The position numbers were made by a program, and so were the translations under genes. The notes under the pieces were generated by a model. That model saw nothing but the letters and a program-made list of their open reading frames with translations, made no database searches and had not been told where the DNA came from. Below are positions 1,956-10,688 of a DNA stretch of 64,000 nucleotides, piece after piece (positions within the stretch are counted from its first letter, which is position 1; every line of letters starts with the position of its first letter). Origin of the DNA: an uncultured Clostridia bacterium. GTDB taxonomy: Bacteria > Bacillota > Clostridia > Tissierellales > DATGTQ01. Location: positions 2,025-66,024 of the forward strand of contig CAYUTQ010000009.1 in assembly GCA_964447805.1 (NCBI GenBank), in the 5' to 3' direction.

Positions 1956-4043
1956 ATGTTATATAAAAAAATATTAGAACTTATAAAACAATATACAGAA
2001 AAATATTTTTTAGATTTAAATAATTTGGATTATTTTACATCCACTTATATTAGTGAAAAAATGAGTATTAAAAGAAATACAGCAAGTCATTATTTAAATA
2101 AATTAAATAAAGAGGGTATATGTATAAAAACTAATACAAGACCTGTTTATTTTTTTCATAAAAAAACTTTGGAAGATAAATATGGTGAGATTAATAAGTT
2201 CGTATTTGATTCTATTGAAGAATTAGAAACTAATATACTATCAACGAATTATATTAATGATTCTTTTAAAACTTTAATAGGGTACAAAGGAAGTCTTAGA
2301 AATCAGGTAGAGCAATGTAAATCAGCAATATTATATCCTCCAAAAGGGTTACCTACTTTGTTAACTGGAGCATCAGGTACAGGAAAATCTTTTATGGCAG
2401 AAAAAATGTATGAATATGCTGTTCAAGAGGGTATTGTTGCTAAGAATGCTCCATTTATAATATTTAATTGTGCACAATATGCCAATAACCCAGAATTGAT
2501 TTCATCGAATCTTTTTGGATATGTAAAAGGAGCTTTTACAGGAGCTGATAAAGATTGTAATGGTGTTTTGGAAAGTGCAAATGGGGGATTCTTATTTTTA
2601 GATGAAGCTCATAGATTAAATGCAGAAGGACAGGAAAAGTTATTTATTTTAATGGATAAAGGTGTTTATAGAAGAATGGGAGAATCAGATGGTTATCATA
2701 AAGTAGATGTAAGACTTATTTTTGCTACTACAGAAAATGTAAAAGATGTATTTTTAGATACATTTATTAGAAGAATACCATTAATAATTAACATTCCAAC
2801 ACTAGAAGAAAGAGGAAAAATAGAAAAAAAAGAGTGTATCTATAAATTTTTTCATGAAGAATCTAAGAAAATAGGCAAAAATATATTGGTTAGTCCCCAT
2901 GTAGTCCAAGTATTGTTAGAACATGAGTTTAATGGAAATTTTGGAGAATTAAAAAATGTTATAAAGAGTATGTGTGCTTTAGCCTTTATAAGGCAAAGGA
3001 AAAAAGAAAGTATAAAAATAAGTTTAACTTTACTTCCTTTTAATGTATTTGTAACGTTAATTAAAAATAATAATATAGAAACTTTAACGGAAGATGATTA
3101 TATATTATTTGAATTAGATAAAAAAATGCCAACTATTCAAAAAAAAGTTTCAGTAGAAGATAATGTAATACCTAATATGTATAAAAAAATTGTATATCAA
3201 TTAAAAAAATATGAAAATAGTGAAATTGAATTTAATAAATTAAATGAAAATATAGCTTGTATAATGTATGATTGTTTTACTAAAATAGTTTTTTTTAGGA
3301 ATGAATATTTTAATGAAAATAAGCTTAGATTAAAATATATTAAAACCTCAATAGCTAAAGTTTTTAATTTTTTCAAAAAAAATTATGGAACTTGTTTTAC
3401 TAGAAATGATGTAATAGCATTTTCTTATTATATTTATTATAGAAGTTATATAGATTTTGATAATAGTATGAAGAAATCAGAAAAGGAAATAACAGATATT
3501 TTAGTATCTAAGGAATTTATAGATGAATATAAAATGGCTGAAAGAATAATAAATGTTTTAAATAGAAACTTTGATATTTTATTAACTTTTGAAGATAAAA
3601 TAATAATAATTTTTTATTTAAAAAATATAAAGATAAAACGTGTATCAAATAGGGTAAAATGTATGATTATAACACATGGCTATTCTACTGCCAGTAGTTT
3701 AGCTAATATTGGGAACCATAGATATAGAAGAATTTTATTTGAAGCTTTTGATATGCCTTTAAATGTATCTAAAGATAAAATAATAGAAGAAATTAAAAAC
3801 TATATAGATAATGTTAATATTTCCAATGGTTTAATAGTTTTGGTAGATATATGTCCAATATCAGAAGTTTATAATGAAATATTGAAATTCACAACAAAAC
3901 CAGTAGCTATAATGAATAATGTATCTACTCAAATGGTTTTAGATGTGGGTAATATGATAAATAAAGGTTTAGATATGAAGACTATAGTAGAAAATATAGA
4001 TAGAAATGAAGATAATAAAAAGATATTAATTGCACATTCATAA
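1956..4043 (+). CDS. Sigma-54-dependent transcriptional activator, LevR-like (HTH, AAA+, PRD-like region, EIIA-Man-like domain)
   Basis: Walker A GASGTGKSF, the GAFTGA loop (GYVKGAFTGADKD), Walker B FLFLDEAHRL, and a C-terminal MIITHGYSTASSLANIG...LIVLVDI segment typical of PTS EIIA(Man) modules. RBS AAGAGGTG precedes the ATG. Confidence 0.85.
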   Translation: MLYKKILELIKQYTEKYFLDLNNLDYFTSTYISEKMSIKRNTASHYLNKLNKEGICIKTNTRPVYFFHKKTLEDKYGEINKFVFDSIEELETNILSTNYINDSFKTLIGYKGSLRNQVEQCKSAILYPPKGLPTLLTGASGTGKSFMAEKMYEYAVQEGIVAKNAPFIIFNCAQYANNPELISSNLFGYVKGAFTGADKDCNGVLESANGGFLFLDEAHRLNAEGQEKLFILMDKGVYRRMGESDGYHKVDVRLIFATTENVKDVFLDTFIRRIPLIINIPTLEERGKIEKKECIYKFFHEESKKIGKNILVSPHVVQVLLEHEFNGNFGELKNVIKSMCALAFIRQRKKESIKISLTLLPFNVFVTLIKNNNIETLTEDDYILFELDKKMPTIQKKVSVEDNVIPNMYKKIVYQLKKYENSEIEFNKLNENIACIMYDCFTKIVFFRNEYFNENKLRLKYIKTSIAKVFNFFKKNYGTCFTRNDVIAFSYYIYYRSYIDFDNSMKKSEKEITDILVSKEFIDEYKMAERIINVLNRNFDILLTFEDKIIIIFYLKNIKIKRVSNRVKCMIITHGYSTASSLANIGNHRYRRILFEAFDMPLNVSKDKIIEEIKNYIDNVNISNGLIVLVDICPISEVYNEILKFTTKPVAIMNNVSTQMVLDVGNMINKGLDMKTIVENIDRNEDNKKILIAHS

Positions 4044-4111
4044 AAGAAAATGTTTAGGAGATTGTTAAAAAGTTTAAAAATCTATTAAAAAGTAATTAAA
4101 ATAAAATTGAA

Positions 4112-4188
4112 TAGTGTCATAAAAAAATAAATCCGTCCTGGGCATTGATTTTTTATTGCCTTGGACGGATTGCTTTGTAATGACACTA
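4112..4188. promoter_or_regulatory. Composite palindrome just upstream of the sigma-54 promoter (candidate activator UAS and/or terminator of the regulator gene)
   Basis: TAGTGTCAT (4112..4120) and ATGACACTA (4180..4188) are exact inverted repeats. They enclose the hairpin ATCCGTCCTGGGCA (4131..4144) / TGCCTTGGACGGAT (4157..4170). Confidence 0.5.
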
Positions 4189-4192
4189 ATAT

Positions 4193-4208
4193 TGGCATGA
4201 ATTTTGCT
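4193..4208 (+). promoter_or_regulatory. Sigma-54 (-24/-12) promoter
   Basis: TGGCAT-gaatt-TTGCT matches TGGCAC-N5-TTGCW. The GG at 4194-4195 and GC at 4206-4207 are spaced 12 nt apart. The site lies about 80 nt upstream of the transporter ATG and directly downstream of a sigma-54 activator gene. Confidence 0.8.
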
Positions 4209-4285
4209 TATTATATTAGTGGTGATAAAAAATATTAACTATATCACCTAAAAATTAAAATAACATATTATTAGGAGGGTATTTA

Positions 4286-5476
4286 ATGGAAAAAAAGAAG
4301 AGTTTAGGCCTTTTTCCAAGGCTGATTATTGCAATTATTTTGGGTATAATTTTTGGAAAGATTTTCCCAATACCTTTATTACGTGTTTTAATTACATTTA
4401 ATTCTGTGTTTGGGAACTTCTTAAATTTTGTTGTTCCTCTTATTGTAGTAGGTTTTGTTGTTCCAGGAATAGCAGATCTTGGCAAAAATGCTGGAAAATT
4501 ATTAGGCTTTACAGTTTTTTTGGCATATGCGTCTACAGTAATTGATGGTATATTTGCTTATGGTGTTTCTAAAACAGTATTACCTAAAATTATTGATTTT
4601 AGTAAGTATGCAGTAAAAGGAAACTTTGATGAAAAACTTTTAGAACCATTTTTTGAAATAGAAATGCCACCTTTGTTTAATATTATGTCTGCTATATTAA
4701 TTGCATTTATATTAGGAATTGGAATTGCAAAAATAAAGAATAAAACTATGATGGATTTCTTTAATGGATTTCAGGATATAGTGAAAAATGTTATTGAAGC
4801 TATAATTATTCCATTTTTACCTATTTATATAGCAGGAATTTTTGCTAACATGACTTATGCTGGTCAAATAGCTGAAATATTATCTGTTTATGGTAGAGTT
4901 TTCATCATGGTACTAGTTGTTCAATGGATAGTAATTTTAATTGAATTTTCTATTGCCTCAATTTATAGTGGCAAAATTGGAGTAAAAGAGTTTATAAAAA
5001 ATCAAGTTCCTGCATATTTTACAGCAATTGGTACTCAATCTTCAGCAGCAACAATACCTGTAAATCTTGAGACTGCTAAAGCTAATGGAGTATCAAAGGG
5101 AGTTAGGGAATTTGTTATACCTCTTTGTGGTACAATACATCTTTCTGGAAGCTCCATAGCACTTACTATATTTTCTGTTTCAGTAATGATGATGCATTCA
5201 ATGCCAGTGTCATTTGGTAAAATGTTAGGTTTTATTCTTATGATGGGAATAACATTGGTAGCAGCACCTGGTGTACCTGGAGGTGCAGTTATGGCAGCTT
5301 TAGGGTTATTACAAGGAATGTTAGGATTTAGTGAAGCTCAATTGGCACTTATGATTGCTCTTTATATTTCACAAGATAGCTTTGGAACAGCATGTTGTGT
5401 TTGTGGAGACAATGCTATAGCAGTAATGGTTGATAAAAAAGCTAGTAATATGCATTTAGATATGCCAGAAGATTAA
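4286..5476 (+). CDS. Dicarboxylate/amino acid:cation symporter (DAACS family)
   Basis: About 8-10 TM protein with DAACS-like segments (GTQSSAATIPV, LCGTIHLSGSSIAL, APGVPGGAVMAAL). RBS AGGAGGG is upstream. Confidence 0.8.
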   Translation: MEKKKSLGLFPRLIIAIILGIIFGKIFPIPLLRVLITFNSVFGNFLNFVVPLIVVGFVVPGIADLGKNAGKLLGFTVFLAYASTVIDGIFAYGVSKTVLPKIIDFSKYAVKGNFDEKLLEPFFEIEMPPLFNIMSAILIAFILGIGIAKIKNKTMMDFFNGFQDIVKNVIEAIIIPFLPIYIAGIFANMTYAGQIAEILSVYGRVFIMVLVVQWIVILIEFSIASIYSGKIGVKEFIKNQVPAYFTAIGTQSSAATIPVNLETAKANGVSKGVREFVIPLCGTIHLSGSSIALTIFSVSVMMMHSMPVSFGKMLGFILMMGITLVAAPGVPGGAVMAALGLLQGMLGFSEAQLALMIALYISQDSFGTACCVCGDNAIAVMVDKKASNMHLDMPED

Positions 5477-5601
5477 ATTAATTTTAAAAACTGAATATTA
5501 GAAGAAAAATAGAGGAATAACTATAACAAAGGGAGGTGAAATGTTGCTAAAAGATTTATATAATACTATAATATTTTATAATCTTTTGGTAACGAATATA
5601 T

Positions 5602-6519
5602 ATGTTGAAAATTGCTAGAGATAAAGTAATTTATGAAATGTCAAAAAATCATAAACCTATAGCTCAAGTTGAACTTGAAGAGAAATTTGTAGTAGCAACT
5701 CATGATTGTTATACTGGTGTACTTCAAAGAGAAAATCAACCAGGTAGCAGTGTGCCATGGGAAAAAATAAATCCTGCTACTGGTCCTATTTATGTAAAAG
5801 GGACTGAGGTTGGAGATGTATTAGTAGTAAATATTGAGAAGATAGATATAGAATCTAAATGTGTTATGGCAACACAACCAGGTTTAGGTGTACTAGGTGA
5901 TGAACTTAAAGAAGAAACTACAAGAATATTAGATGTTGTTGATGATGAACTTATTTTCAATGATAGAGTTAAGCTTCCTATAAGACCAATGATAGGAGTT
6001 ATAGGTACAGCTCCAAAGGAAGATCCAGTACCATGTGGTACTCCAGAAGTTCACGGAGGAAATATGGATTGTGCAGAAATTGTTGAAGGAATAAAATTAT
6101 ATTTACCAGTATTTCATGAGGGAGCTCTTCTTTCTTTAGGAGATGTTCATGCTGTAATGGCTGATGGAGAAGTATCTGTAACAGGAGCTGAAGTTCCAGC
6201 AGAAGTAACTTTGAGTTGTGAAGTAATAAAAAAAGGTCAAGAGTATCTTCCATATCCTATGGTAGTAAATAAAGATAAAGTAATGGTAATTCATTCTGAT
6301 GAAACTCTTGAAAAAGCTGTGAAAGGAGCTATAAAAGATTCTATAATGTTTTTAGAAACAAATTATGGTGTGGGAGAAGAAGAATCTTTGAGGCTTTTAA
6401 GTTTAGTAGGAGATACAAGAATTTGTCAGGTAGTAGATCCTTTAATGACTGTAAGAGTAGAAATACCTAAAATGGTATTAGAACAATTAGGAAATGTGAA
6501 TGGAAAATTAAATTTATAA
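5602..6519 (+). CDS. Acetamidase/formamidase-family amidohydrolase
   Basis: FmdA/AmdA-like motifs are present: TGPIYVKGTEVGDVL, PEVHGGNMDC, GDVHAVMADGEV. There is no obvious SD before the ATG at 5602 (see the uORF finding). Confidence 0.75.
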   Translation: MLKIARDKVIYEMSKNHKPIAQVELEEKFVVATHDCYTGVLQRENQPGSSVPWEKINPATGPIYVKGTEVGDVLVVNIEKIDIESKCVMATQPGLGVLGDELKEETTRILDVVDDELIFNDRVKLPIRPMIGVIGTAPKEDPVPCGTPEVHGGNMDCAEIVEGIKLYLPVFHEGALLSLGDVHAVMADGEVSVTGAEVPAEVTLSCEVIKKGQEYLPYPMVVNKDKVMVIHSDETLEKAVKGAIKDSIMFLETNYGVGEEESLRLLSLVGDTRICQVVDPLMTVRVEIPKMVLEQLGNVNGKLNL

Positions 6520-6544
6520 TATATAGGTGAATTAACTATTTCGA

Positions 6545-6584
6545 AAAGTCTTAATTAGATTTAAATCTAGTTAAGACTTTTTTG
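6545..6584 (+). terminator. Rho-independent terminator of the transporter-amidase operon
   Basis: AAGTCTTAATTAGATTT / AAATCTAGTTAAGACTT stem followed by TTTTTT. Confidence 0.75.
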
Positions 6585-7104
6585 TCGATCTTTCTTAGTT
6601 GCTTTTTATATATTAATTTAGTAAGAGATACAAAATATATAAAAAAGAAGGTCTATATTTAAATTATATAGGATAGTTTAAATATAAAATAATTAATTTA
6701 TGAATTTGAAATAAAGGGTATTTTAAATGAAAGTTGATATTAAATTTAATAATAATTTTACAAAAGAGCATTTCTTTTGTTTAAGATAATATTTTATCAT
6801 AAAATCTTAAATATTTTGATATTACTTTTTCAGTGATTTCAATGTTCTCATGGTTAATTTTAATATATATAAGATTTTCAAGTTTACTAATAAAAAAGAT
6901 ATAGATAATATGAAAACAAAAATATATGGAAGAGAAAATAAAAATCATTAGATTATTTGGTAGCGAAAATAAGATATTAAAAATGGTAAAAAAATTTGTA
7001 TAAATATCTGTAAATAGAAAATTATGATAAGATATTATACTAGGAAAAAATCAAATTAAAATATATAGAAAAAAAGAGTATGAAAAATGATAATAGTTAA
7101 AAAA

Positions 7105-7152
7105 ATGTCGTCGACCTTCAATAGGTGAAAAACCCTAGGAGATCGACGACAT
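7105..7152. terminator. GC-rich 10-bp stem with a 28-nt loop flanked by A/T runs, upstream of the CRISPR leader (insulating terminator?)
   Basis: ATGTCGTCGA (7105..7114) pairs with TCGACGACAT (7143..7152). An A-run precedes it and TTTTAATTTTTT follows. Confidence 0.45.
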
Positions 7153-7236
7153 TTTAATTTTTTATAAAACATAGTAATAGCAATGCATAGGAGAAAAAAT
7201 GTTAAAAAATTGTAATTATTAAGAATTTTTATTTGT

Positions 7237-7265
7237 TTGACAAAAATAAAAGAATGTAGTATTAT
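7237..7265 (+). promoter_or_regulatory. SigA-type promoter in the CRISPR leader
   Basis: TTGACA (7237..7242), a 17-nt spacer, then TATTAT (7260..7265). The -10 element ends 14 nt before repeat 1. Confidence 0.65.
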
Positions 7266-7279
7266 TGAGATGTTCAAGT

Positions 7280-9638
7280 GTTGTTAGTCTACCTATAAGG
7301 AATTGAAACAGGTGGGTCTATAAATAATACATCTGCATCATACATGTTGTTAGTCTACCTATAAGGAATTGAAACCTGTAAAGTGCCAACTTGCTCCTGT
7401 AGAAGGATTCTTGTTGTTAGTCTACCTATAAGGAATTGAAACACCCACTTCTGGCTCGATTATAGCCCTTTCTTTCTGTTGTTAGTCTACCTATAAGGAA
7501 TTGAAACTACATTAGGTCAGTATTTGCAAGCCATCTCCTTAGTTGTTAGTCTACCTATAAGGAATTGAAACTTGATAATATAACGTCTGCATCTTCCATT
7601 TCTAATTCGTTGTTAGTCTACCTATAAGGAATTGAAACTAAATTCTCCTGCATCTAGTTCATTCAGTTTTGTTTTGTTGTTAGTCTACCTATAAGGAATT
7701 GAAACATAAAAAAGATGAAACTTTTATTGAGCTAACAATTGATAGTTGTTAGTCTACCTATAAGGAATTGAAACGGTATCTAATGAAAAAATGCAATATT
7801 CCTATTAGTAACGGTTGTTAGTCTACCTATAAGGAATTGAAACTACCGTACGGTACGGTATATGTCAAGTCTTTTATTTAGTTGTTAGTCTACCTATAAG
7901 GAATTGAAACACCACTTCCACTTGTGCGTCTGTGTTTCCGGCCATTGTTGTTAGTCTACCTATAAGGAATTGAAACTTTTTTTCTTGTGTTCTTCTGTTA
8001 GTTCCTCGAAAGGTTGTTAGTCTACCTATAAGGAATTGAAACTTTTTTTCTTGTGTTCTTCTGTTAGTTCCTCGAAAGGTTGTTAGTCTACCTATAAGGA
8101 ATTGAAACCCCCAATTTTTAGCACTACTTACTATCCCATTTATTGAACGTTGTTAGTCTACCTATAAGGAATTGAAACCATTTTGTACCCCGTCTTCCCT
8201 TGCATCGGGGAAGTTCGTTGTTAGTCTACCTATAAGGAATTGAAACACATTTTAACTACCTCCTTGATTTTTTGTTTCTTTTTCGTTGTTAGTCTACCTA
8301 TAAGGAATTGAAACGAATTCAACAATCATATTACAGGACCGTTCCATATGTTGTTAGTCTACCTATAAGGAATTGAAACAGGATATGGACATAGATGCAA
8401 TACAGAAGGCAGCAGATGGTTGTTAGTCTACCTATAAGGAATTGAAACAAACATACGAGAAACTGCAAATTAAAGGTATTCTAAGTTGTTAGTCTACCTA
8501 TAAGGAATTGAAACTTTCTTTTTGCTGTTCGGCTATTCGTTTTTCTTTTGTTGTTAGTCTACCTATAAGGAATTGAAACAAGAGTGCTAAACCCCTATAG
8601 TCTTTTTGTTGTCTTAGGTTGTTAGTCTACCTATAAGGAATTGAAACAATCCATGTACTACTGCATTTGTAACTAGTTGATCTGTTGTTAGTCTACCTAT
8701 AAGGAATTGAAACTCAATTACATCAAACAATGCAATCATCCTAGGATTGTTGTTAGTCTACCTATAAGGAATTGAAACGCGTTTAATTCTGTTAGTGCAT
8801 CTTTAGTTTCTTGTAGGTTGTTAGTCTACCTATAAGGAATTGAAACTCAATTACATCAAACAATGCAATCATCCTAGGATTGTTGTTAGTCTACCTATAA
8901 GGAATTGAAACACATTTTAATTCCTCCTTGATTATGTAAGCCCCTCGTTGTTAGTCTACCTATAAGGAATTGAAACGAAGAGACTGGAAAAGTATACGTT
9001 GGAAATTTGAGGTTGTTAGTCTACCTATAAGGAATTGAAACTCAAAAACAAGGTAGTCATCTTTGTATGAGGTCATGGTTGTTAGTCTACCTATAAGGAA
9101 TTGAAACGTATTTGCAACGACGTAACTTATTATGTTGTTTTCTGTTGTTAGTCTACCTATAAGGAATTGAAACAAAGCAAAGAAACAAGGGAAACTATTG
9201 AATTCTTTTTGTTGTTAGTCTACCTATAAGGAATTGAAACCTTTCCAACCTCTTTTATTTTGCCCTCTACAAAAAGTTGTTAGTCTACCTATAAGGAATT
9301 GAAACACAAATTCTTGAGCTTCTATAACTGCTGTTCTCATAGTTGTTAGTCTACCTATAAGGAATTGAAACTTTCCTGATGGCAAATTCCTTACTGGTAG
9401 AGATTTTGGTTGTTAGTCTACCTATAAGGAATTGAAACTAAAGTCTGCTGTTGGCTTACCTTGTTGCTCAAACTCGTTGTTAGTCTACCTATAAGGAATT
9501 GAAACAGGGAGAAGAAAAGTGATTCTGTCGCTCAAGTAGATGGTTGTTAGTCTACCTATAAGGAATTGAAACCTATATGTGGCATATAAACCTTATCTAG
9601 CAGTGTTAGTTGTTAGTCTACCTATAAGGAATTGAAAT
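7280..9638 (+). CRISPR. CRISPR array of 36 repeats and 35 spacers, with no cas genes in the window
   Basis: The 30-nt repeat is GTTGTTAGTCTACCTATAAGGAATTGAAAC and spacers are 34-40 nt. Repeats 1-35 look identical; the last repeat (9609..9638) ends GAAAT. The ATTGAAAC 3' end is typical of Cas6-processed type I-B/III repeats. That end, the leader promoter and the degenerate distal repeat all point to + strand transcription. Confidence 0.97.
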
Positions 9639-9787
9639 TATTTTGGATTTAATGAAAATGTGGTAGCTTTTGATTCTTTTGAAAAAAGTATAAAAGAATA
9701 CTATAAAGAATTTGTAAATTATTTGAAAGAACATGGTGATATATAGACAAATAAAAAATAAAATCAATAGCGAAAGTATATTATCAA

Positions 9788-9867: not shown

Positions 9868-9896
9868 TTGACATACTAAAAGTGAAAGAGTATTAT
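9868..9896 (+). promoter_or_regulatory. Consensus-like SigA promoter with no intact gene behind it
   Basis: TTGACA (9868..9873), a 17-nt spacer, then TATTAT (9891..9896). These are the same hexamers and spacing as the CRISPR leader promoter. Confidence 0.5.
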
Positions 9897-10136: not shown

Positions 10137-10688
10137 ATGAACTTGATGACAATATAGGAGAAATTGATCCTGAAAAACTGCTTTGTTAATAATTGATATG
10201 CAAAATGTATTTATTCTTAGACATTCTGGAGAAAATTTATCTGGGAAAGAAAATTGGGAAAGCTGGTAACTATTTTATGACAAAATGGAACATGTTGTAA
10301 CTCTAAATATTAAAAATTTGTTAGATATACTTAGAGGAAAAAAATGGAAGCCATATTTGCTAAAATAATTTGCCAAAAGAAAGATAGTAGAGATAGGTAT
10401 TTAGATCAAAAAGCAACTGGTTTTAATGAATTATTACTTCCTCTTGGTTCAAAAGAAGGAGAAATAATTGATGAATTAAAACTTATTGAAGATGAAATAA
10501 TAGTAATGAAGACAACTAATAGTGCTTTAACAGGAACAAATTTACACAATATAGGTATCGATACTATTATAGTAATTGGAGTATTTACTGACCAATGTGT
10601 TTTTTGTATAGTTAGAAGTTTAGCAAATGAAAGTTTCAAAGTATACTTGATTGAAGATGGTTGTATGGCTGCGACTGAAGAAATTTAA
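10137..10688 (+). pseudogene. Isochorismatase/cysteine-hydrolase family gene (nicotinamidase-like), disrupted
   Basis: KTALLIIDMQN (from 10174) is preceded by an in-frame TGA, and an A5 run at 10173..10177 separates it from the upstream frame. There is an in-frame TAA at 10267..10269. The frame then changes at the A7 run 10338..10344 into ORF 10344..10688, which carries VMKTTNSALTGTNL and VIGVFTDQCV (Lys and Cys of the catalytic triad). Confidence 0.7.

Follow-up and report, generated by a model that had tools for sequence, protein, structure and literature searches.

How is a large and well-preserved CRISPR array served when no intact cas gene lies near it? This question is raised by a 64,000-nucleotide stretch of the genome of an uncultured Clostridia bacterium (C9:2025-66024, where C9 is contig CAYUTQ010000009.1; the whole stretch is referred to as the window), which carries on its plus strand an array (7280-9638) in which 36 repeats, each of 30 nt, alternate with 35 spacers of 34-40 nt. 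An earlier note, made from the letters of the window, had called this an orphan array and had presumed that a distant cas locus serves it in trans. The genome (2.1 Mb, 28% G+C, 71 contigs, rated 99.65% complete) contains a cas locus with a matching repeat, leader and promoter. The array is probably a detached but working memory bank of the combined type I-B/type III-D system that is encoded on the reverse strand of contig C7 and continues on contig C47.

The array and its counterpart at a remote cas locus

Regularly spaced and near-identical repeats, spacers of similar length, a leader with a promoter and a degenerate repeat at the far end identify the element as a CRISPR array. The repeat count of the earlier note was confirmed: copies 1-35 carry the same sequence (GTTGTTAGTCTACCTATAAGGAATTGAAAC, no differences among 35 of the 36 copies), and only the terminal copy 36 (9609-9638, plus strand) differs, by a C>T change, and ends in ...GAAAT. 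All 36 repeats scored above the gathering threshold of the Rfam family CRISPR-DR2, whose minus-strand call is a consequence of how the model was built and nothing more. The repeat folds at -1.1 kcal/mol, which is not better than shuffled sequences, and has no strong hairpin; its 3' end is the 8-nt tag sequence ATTGAAAC. Because of the position of the leader, the variant last repeat and the 3' tag, the array was read on the plus strand. As a refinement of the earlier count, 33 of the 35 spacers are unique. Spacers 11 and 12 (7977-8012 and 8043-8078, plus strand) are identical and represent a tandem duplication of one repeat-spacer unit, and spacers 22 and 24 (8714-8748 and 8847-8881, plus strand) are identical with spacer 23 in between. 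Spacers 15 and 25 have their first ~22 nt in common, which correspond to the reverse complement of a ribosome-binding site and start codon.

No intact cas gene was found in the 9.3 kb upstream of the array, up to the end of an insertion sequence (IS), or in the 55 kb downstream of it; the array is a remote (detached) array in a cas-bearing genome. Elsewhere in the genome, the repeat family occurs as an 11-repeat array on the minus strand of C7 and as a lone degenerate copy where contig C56 ends. The repeat of the C7 array (ATTATTAGTCTACCTATGAGGAATTGAAAC) is identical to the window repeat at 27 of 30 positions, including the 3' 12 nt, and the GAAAT ending of the terminal window repeat is also seen in the terminal repeats of the C7 array and in the lone C56 repeat. 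Both kinds of repeat, with ...TATAAGG... and with ...TATGAGG..., occur in arrays together in one genome of a relative (G012). Directly downstream of the C7 array and on the same strand lies a cas6 gene (C7 9055-9810; TIGR01877, E = 2e-41). It is followed by a type III-D set, consisting of a Cas10-like protein with a palm2 domain, a small RAMP, Csx10, a double-RAMP Csx7-like protein, Csx19 and a TIGR03986 RAMP, and then by Cas8b, which is split at the contig break with its N-terminal two thirds on C7 and the remaining third opening C47. The two contigs are joined by a 17-nt overlap and by these two halves of Cas8b. Past Cas8b, the order on C47 is Cas7/Csh2, Cas5h, Cas3, Cas4, Cas1b and Cas2, and at this locus cas1-cas2 are present only in the I-B set.

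A second type I-B locus, on contig C4, is complete (cas6-cas8b1-cas7-cas5-cas3-cas4-cas1-cas2) and has a 155-repeat array, whose repeat (CTTTTAATAGAACTACAGTAGAATGTAAAT) is unrelated to that of the window. Whole-genome profile searches identified two cas6, two cas1 and two cas3 genes and one RAMP cluster, and no more. The genome scan that the earlier note had proposed has thus located a cas6/III-D/I-B cluster with a related array, and the guess of a type I-B/III system that it drew from the repeat tag proved right. The label "orphan" is a misnomer at the level of the genome, which holds a putatively compatible cas6, III-D and I-B locus on C7/C47.

The leader ties the array to this locus more closely. 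The window leader (7106-7279, plus strand) is homologous to leader copies on C7 and C47, and contains the promoter that the earlier note had recognized, a predicted sigma-70 type promoter at 7237-7265 (plus strand) with TTGACA at 7237-7242, a 17-nt spacing and TATTAT at 7260-7265. It matches 11 of 12 consensus positions and ends 14 nt before repeat 1. Over the ~185-nt leaders, 157 of 187 positions (84%) are identical between the window and the cas6-adjacent C7 array, and the -35 hexamer, the -10 hexamer and their spacing are all identical. Similar promoter boxes are found in several leaders of relatives; the leader body outside an inverted repeat at its far end is poorly conserved from genome to genome, and the match between the window and C7 leaders therefore reflects kinship inside this genome.

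A third leader copy starts after the cas2 stop codon on C47 (locus L008, C47 6258-8400) and is identical to the window leader at 110 of 143 positions. This copy is cut just before the promoter by an IS patchwork composed of an ISLre2-like piece (identified by eye from its translation), an IstB fragment and an IS1634-family transposase gene, and no array was found behind the truncation point. Contigs from three public sequencing runs of two studies span the junction, which shows that the truncation is not an assembly artefact. The I-B/III-D system now has two arrays, both detached from cas2, with 33 unique spacers in the window and 10 in the C7 array. The window array lies at least ~19 kb from cas2 and the other cas genes, as judged from the contig layout. 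Since the array next to cas2 was destroyed by IS activity, the window array is the main and largest spacer store of the system. The C7 cas6, the 27/30 repeat match, the 84% leader identity and the full I-B set all support the earlier suggestion of service in trans.

On this basis, we propose the following working of the system. The leader promoter would drive transcription of a plus-strand precursor of the array, and Cas6 from C7 would cut it 8 nt before the 3' end of each repeat, giving CRISPR RNAs (crRNAs) with a 5' AUUGAAAC tag. In Clostridium thermocellum and Methanococcus maripaludis, RNA-seq and in vitro cleavage revealed the same 5' tag on type I-B crRNAs whose repeats are 30 or 37 nt long (PMC3479195). 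The crRNAs would most likely be taken up by the I-B Cascade (Cas8b-Cas7-Cas5), which would act with Cas3 in DNA interference, and also by the III-D complex, whose interference would depend on transcripts and would probably be assisted by CARF-domain proteins. Because the window leader is a full, family-typical copy, Cas1-Cas2-Cas4 from C47 would be able to insert spacers at the leader end of the window array, and acquisition may be continuing.

Spacer composition, a gene remnant and rival explanations

The composition of the spacers was compared with that of the C4 array. In crRNA orientation, pyrimidines predominate in 31 of the 43 unique spacers that the window and C7 arrays contain (binomial p = 0.005; mean purine fraction 0.43). 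In the C4 array of 154 spacers, pyrimidine-rich spacers number 77 against 72, with a mean purine fraction of 0.49, and the two sets differ (Mann-Whitney p = 0.008). The coding strands of the genome are 59.5% purine, so pyrimidine-rich spacers would give crRNAs that are mostly antisense to mRNA. This composition fits the need of type III systems for mRNA-antisense crRNAs, and it independently supports the plus-strand reading of the array. It also agrees with the coding-strand bias of about 2:1 that was described for type III arrays and for type I arrays found alongside type III effectors (PMC8482600).

The end of the array away from the leader provides a trace of its past. Abutting the last repeat is the remnant of a Csx1/TM1812-family CARF-HEPN gene (9636-9746, plus strand), composed of the last 36 codons (9636-9743) and the stop codon (9744-9746). 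Its product, NYFGFNENVVAFDSFEKSIKEYYKEFVNYLKEHGDI, aligns to residues 393-428 of an intact 432-aa TM1812-family protein encoded on C56, with 47% identity and E = 1e-8 in the search of the flank or E = 1e-5 over the whole genome; the C56 protein itself matches TIGR02221 with E = 7e-37. The earlier statement that no flanking gene is Cas-like holds for complete cas genes, of which neither the window nor the 2,024 bases of C9 to its left contain any, but it overlooked this remnant. A search for remnants of cas1, cas2 and cas6 also covered the 580 nt ahead of the leader and the DNA behind the array; none rose above shuffled controls, and only the Csx1-family remnant stood out. Its position at the last repeat indicates that the site formerly carried CRISPR-associated genes. 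In the history that we propose, genes of its own once lay behind the window array and would have been removed by deletion or decay, with the Csx1-family remnant as the survivor.

Several observations weigh against a working array. Recognition by Cas6 or by Cas1-Cas2 could suffer from the three positions at which the repeat departs from that of the cas-adjacent array, and purine content is a proxy for strand bias that was taken here from a modest sample. The sequencing runs that contain the sequence are all DNA runs (labelled fossil metagenome, plus one landfill run), and no RNA run is listed. The spacer searches that the earlier note had recommended for the protospacer adjacent motif (PAM) and for signs of activity yielded no protospacer in INPHARED phages or PLSDB plasmids (whole array), in IMG/VR (three probes) or in JGI metagenomes (two probes). 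In a contig of the European Nucleotide Archive from the sample of another study, the leader and the first 10 spacers are unchanged, with no recent acquisition visible. The decaying surroundings, namely the Csx1 remnant and a broken isochorismatase-family gene beyond it, would also be expected at a dying locus. The lack of protospacer matches, the unchanged leader end and the decay nearby would also suit an inert relic, neither transcribed nor processed nor extended any more, of a CRISPR-Cas locus that decayed in place and looks pristine owing to recent loss, and the two internal spacer duplications, which are products of recombination and not of acquisition, could be added in its favor. We nevertheless consider a relic unlikely. 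The 35 repeats before the terminal one show no differences, the leader keeps an intact promoter and the motif typical of the family, and it was, by contrast, the post-cas2 leader copy that was lost. The genome also has intact genes for a matching Cas6, for effectors and for adaptation, and the spacers show a type III-like composition bias that the unrelated C4 array lacks. The uniformity of the repeats, from which the earlier note had argued for recent activity, stands as an observation; by itself it is no proof of such activity, and the leader end is identical in an independent sample.

If the array is in use, the proteins could in principle come from the C4 locus, which is complete from cas6 through cas2 and has a spacer (spacer 37) that overlaps spacer 8 of the window. 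This seems hardly credible: the C4 repeat ends in ATGTAAAT and not in ATTGAAAC, the C4 Cas6 is only 24% identical to that of C7, and the C4 leader has just a degenerate far-end motif in common with the window leader. Where two repeat classes occur in one organism, as in C. thermocellum and M. maripaludis, each Cas6 cuts its own repeats only (PMC3479195). It is also very unlikely that the detachment is an artefact of assembly fragmentation, with a cas operon directly past the contig end in the real chromosome. Such an artefact is conceivable in a genome of 71 contigs, where C9 starts in an IS end common to 13 contig ends and its left neighbor is ambiguous. However, 9.3 kb of unrelated genes and at least one IS copy lie between the array and anything past the contig end; all cas genes found are already placed, on C7/C47 and on C4, neither nearer than ~19 kb; and the free end of C47 does not carry that IS end. 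No cas operon was found immediately outside the window on the leader side, where unrelated genes run to the IS end. End overlaps and contigs from the sequencing runs gave no link between C9 and its neighbors, and among the contigs tried only C7 and C47 could be joined.

The overlap between spacer 8 (7775-7813, plus strand) and C4 spacer 37 covers 20-21 nt on opposite strands, which indicates that both CRISPR systems sampled the same invader. A PAM could not be derived from this pair, as the overlap is tail-to-tail and exposes neither 5' flank. The TGG that follows spacer 8 was considered as a CCA PAM and rejected, since this requires an inverted array and is contradicted by the leader, the tag and the terminal repeat. 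The single match in IMG/VR was dismissed as a chance match to a ribosome-binding-site region, and the window spacers have no self-target in the genome. The landfill run contains traces of a ~97-98% identical relative. In the Logan contigs, unitigs break at every repeat and dropout is uneven, so that absence or novelty of spacers is not readable between samples.

A conserved inverted repeat in the leader

The far end of the window leader is formed by an inverted repeat (TGTCGTCGACCTTCAATAGGTGAAAAACCCTAGGAGATCGACGACA; 7106-7151, plus strand), which ends 130 nt before repeat 1 and folds into a hairpin of -25 kcal/mol (z = -6 against shuffled sequences). It is kept in all three leader copies of the genome, the other two being at C7 10964-11009 (minus strand) and C47 6260-6305. 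At the C4 locus, a degenerate version of the motif follows cas2 and is the only likeness of the C4 leader to that of the window. The consensus of the motif, TGTCGTCGACCTCCAGTAGTGCAAAAACCCCTGGAGGTCGACGACA, spans ~45 nt.

Across genomes, the motif is found near almost every array of the ...CTACCTATRAGGAATTGAAAC repeat family (loci L014-L021, L030-L065 and L070-L106), in several bacterial orders. It is present in 12 of 41 genomes of the same order, and also in Halanaerobiales, Anaerosalibacter and the high-G+C Paludifilum. When the motif alone was used as the query, 30 of 33 assessable copies were followed by a repeat of the family. Copies precede the first repeat by 99-146 nt, and the distances have modes at 123, 133 and 136-137 nt. 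Tested for helical phasing, they cluster with a best period of ~12 nt rather than 10.5, from data points that are not independent. Compensatory changes occur in 7 of the 14 stem pairs, and none of 500 shuffles reached the observed covariation score, in a test that is biased because the outer stem arms are partly fixed by the search pattern. The loop is conserved. Counts of G-U pairs (30 vs 50, driven by two positions) gave no clear preference for one strand of the hairpin.

We considered whether the hairpin is the relic of a cas2 terminator, which would mean that the window array was copied from a cas2-adjacent one. This was rejected: family leaders in many genomes are headed by the motif, cas2 stands directly before only 4 of ~20 leaders, and the motif has no U-tract in high-GC hosts. 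The discrete distance clusters, the conserved loop, the missing U-tract in these hosts and the presence at nearly every family array likewise argue against a mere terminator of any kind. Tentatively, the inverted repeat might instead serve the arrays of this I-B/III repeat family as a cis element of their own. By analogy with the inverted repeats of type I-F leaders, it could be a site where Cas1-Cas2(-Cas4) docks or folds the DNA, and through it detached arrays would be addressable in trans. It could also be a regulator site or a bidirectional transcription insulator. Given its inverted repeat, the window leader is complete by the standards of the family, and the motif provides a simple sequence test for a complete leader on other detached arrays of this family. 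No Rfam family matches the inverted repeat, and no description of it was found in the searchable literature; large surveys of leader motifs might catalogue it.

Two other arrangements of the motif were seen. In Paludifilum halophilum (NZ_NOWF01000006.1, 1690-7540; L054), at least nine tandem units occur within 6 kb, each composed of the inverted repeat without a following U-tract, a ~123-nt leader and a short array of 4-10 slightly differing repeats. Four other loci (L100 and L101 on G022 C9, and L077 and L074 in G037) have a full leader with the inverted repeat followed by two repeats, the second degenerate, and one spacer; these may be regulatory mini-arrays.

Known systems and the surroundings of the array

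Detached arrays that share their repeat, Cas6 and adaptation module with remote cas loci are well documented, and the window array belongs among them. The closest comparison is with the 30-nt arrays of C. thermocellum served by the Cas6 Cthe_2303 (PMC3479195), which likewise have essentially unstructured 30-nt repeats ending in ATTGAAAC, several arrays per genome for one Cas6, and, in the same cell, another I-B system that has a repeat and a Cas6 to itself. The 8-nt AUUGAAAC 5' tag was demonstrated there by RNA-seq and in vitro cleavage, whereas here it is predicted from the sequence. Well-formed arrays with a leader far from cas genes are also the subject of a 2020 CRISPR J survey, as cited in PMC8616872. 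The orphan arrays of Anabaena PCC 7120 that were assigned to Cas6 enzymes (10.1101/2020.04.14.041012) and array 3 of Thermotoga profunda, which is far from all cas clusters (PMC13769266), are similar cases. Unlike these earlier examples, the window array has an unusually explicit link to one cas locus through a common leader and promoter, a lost cas2-side array and the fossil of a CRISPR-associated gene, and its history is unusually legible among detached arrays.

The sharing of arrays between type I and type III effectors (2021, PMC8482600) offers a second parallel, with one repeat family and one Cas6 feeding both kinds of effector, a type III module without its own cas1-cas2, and spacers that lean towards mRNA complementarity; the difference is that strand bias was measured here through purine content only. 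Pyrococcus furiosus, mentioned in the same paper, has seven arrays that are used by several effector complexes. For the leader element, the comparison is with leader motifs that guide the integration of spacers, namely the inverted repeats of type I-F leaders, to which Cas2 binds in that process (10.1101/2023.05.26.542337), and the leader motifs of archaeal I-B systems (PMC13748974). The likeness consists in a conserved inverted repeat ~100-145 bp ahead of the first repeat at nearly every array of the family. The element described here differs in sequence, and its hosts (Bacillota and others) have no known IHF partner. These results leave the current understanding of CRISPR biology unchanged. 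They assign an array called "orphan" to the cas6/III-D/I-B locus on C7/C47, and would provide a natural example of an array that was detached through decay of neighboring genes while remaining usable.

The flanks of the array agree with the earlier description of a sigma-54 operon on one side and decayed genes on the other. Upstream (1956-6519, plus strand) are genes for a sigma-54 activator, a sodium:dicarboxylate symporter and an acetamidase/formamidase-family protein, with a perfect -24/-12 promoter (TGGCATGAATTTTGC) at 4193-4207; a YitT-family membrane protein gene is also located upstream of the array. To the left of the window, the remaining 2,024 bases of C9 hold an iron-type alcohol dehydrogenase gene and then the terminus of the multi-copy IS. 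The body of this IS is probably contig C68 (1.9 kb), and it ends 13 contigs, including the left end of C9 (C9 1-50) and the right end of C7. This IS and several decayed loci suggest that the genome is undergoing active IS expansion.

Downstream of the array, the first ~1.1 kb has no intact gene. The decayed DNA there includes the broken isochorismatase-family gene (10170-10688, plus strand), past which ordinary metabolic genes follow. Of the 175 positions of the Pfam model, its open reading frame (10344-10688) matches only 59-154, and an N-terminal piece (ALLIIDMQNVF...) lies upstream of it in a different frame. A second TTGACA-17-TATTAT site (9868-9896, 11/12) is found ~230 nt past the array and before the broken isochorismatase region, without an intact gene after it.

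Two features of the other cas-related contigs were also recorded. On C56 (locus L010), the lone degenerate repeat (7316-7345) is followed by genes at 5835-7193, 4490-5788, 3042-4319 and 2078-3097, two of them of the CARF family (one with a weak TIGR02710-like match, one with a TM1812/Csx1-like match) and two with weak WCX-domain matches. The layout runs from the lone repeat to the CARF gene and then the TM1812 gene, and the end of contig C41 carries another copy of the 134 nt ahead of the repeat. This repeat and its genes may be the stranded tail of the lost cas2-adjacent array with type III ancillary genes. The cyclase motif of Cas10 is usually GGDD; the Cas10-like protein of C7 (7459-8997, locus L011) reads AGDD, is short (512 aa), matches only the second palm domain and has no HD-domain match.

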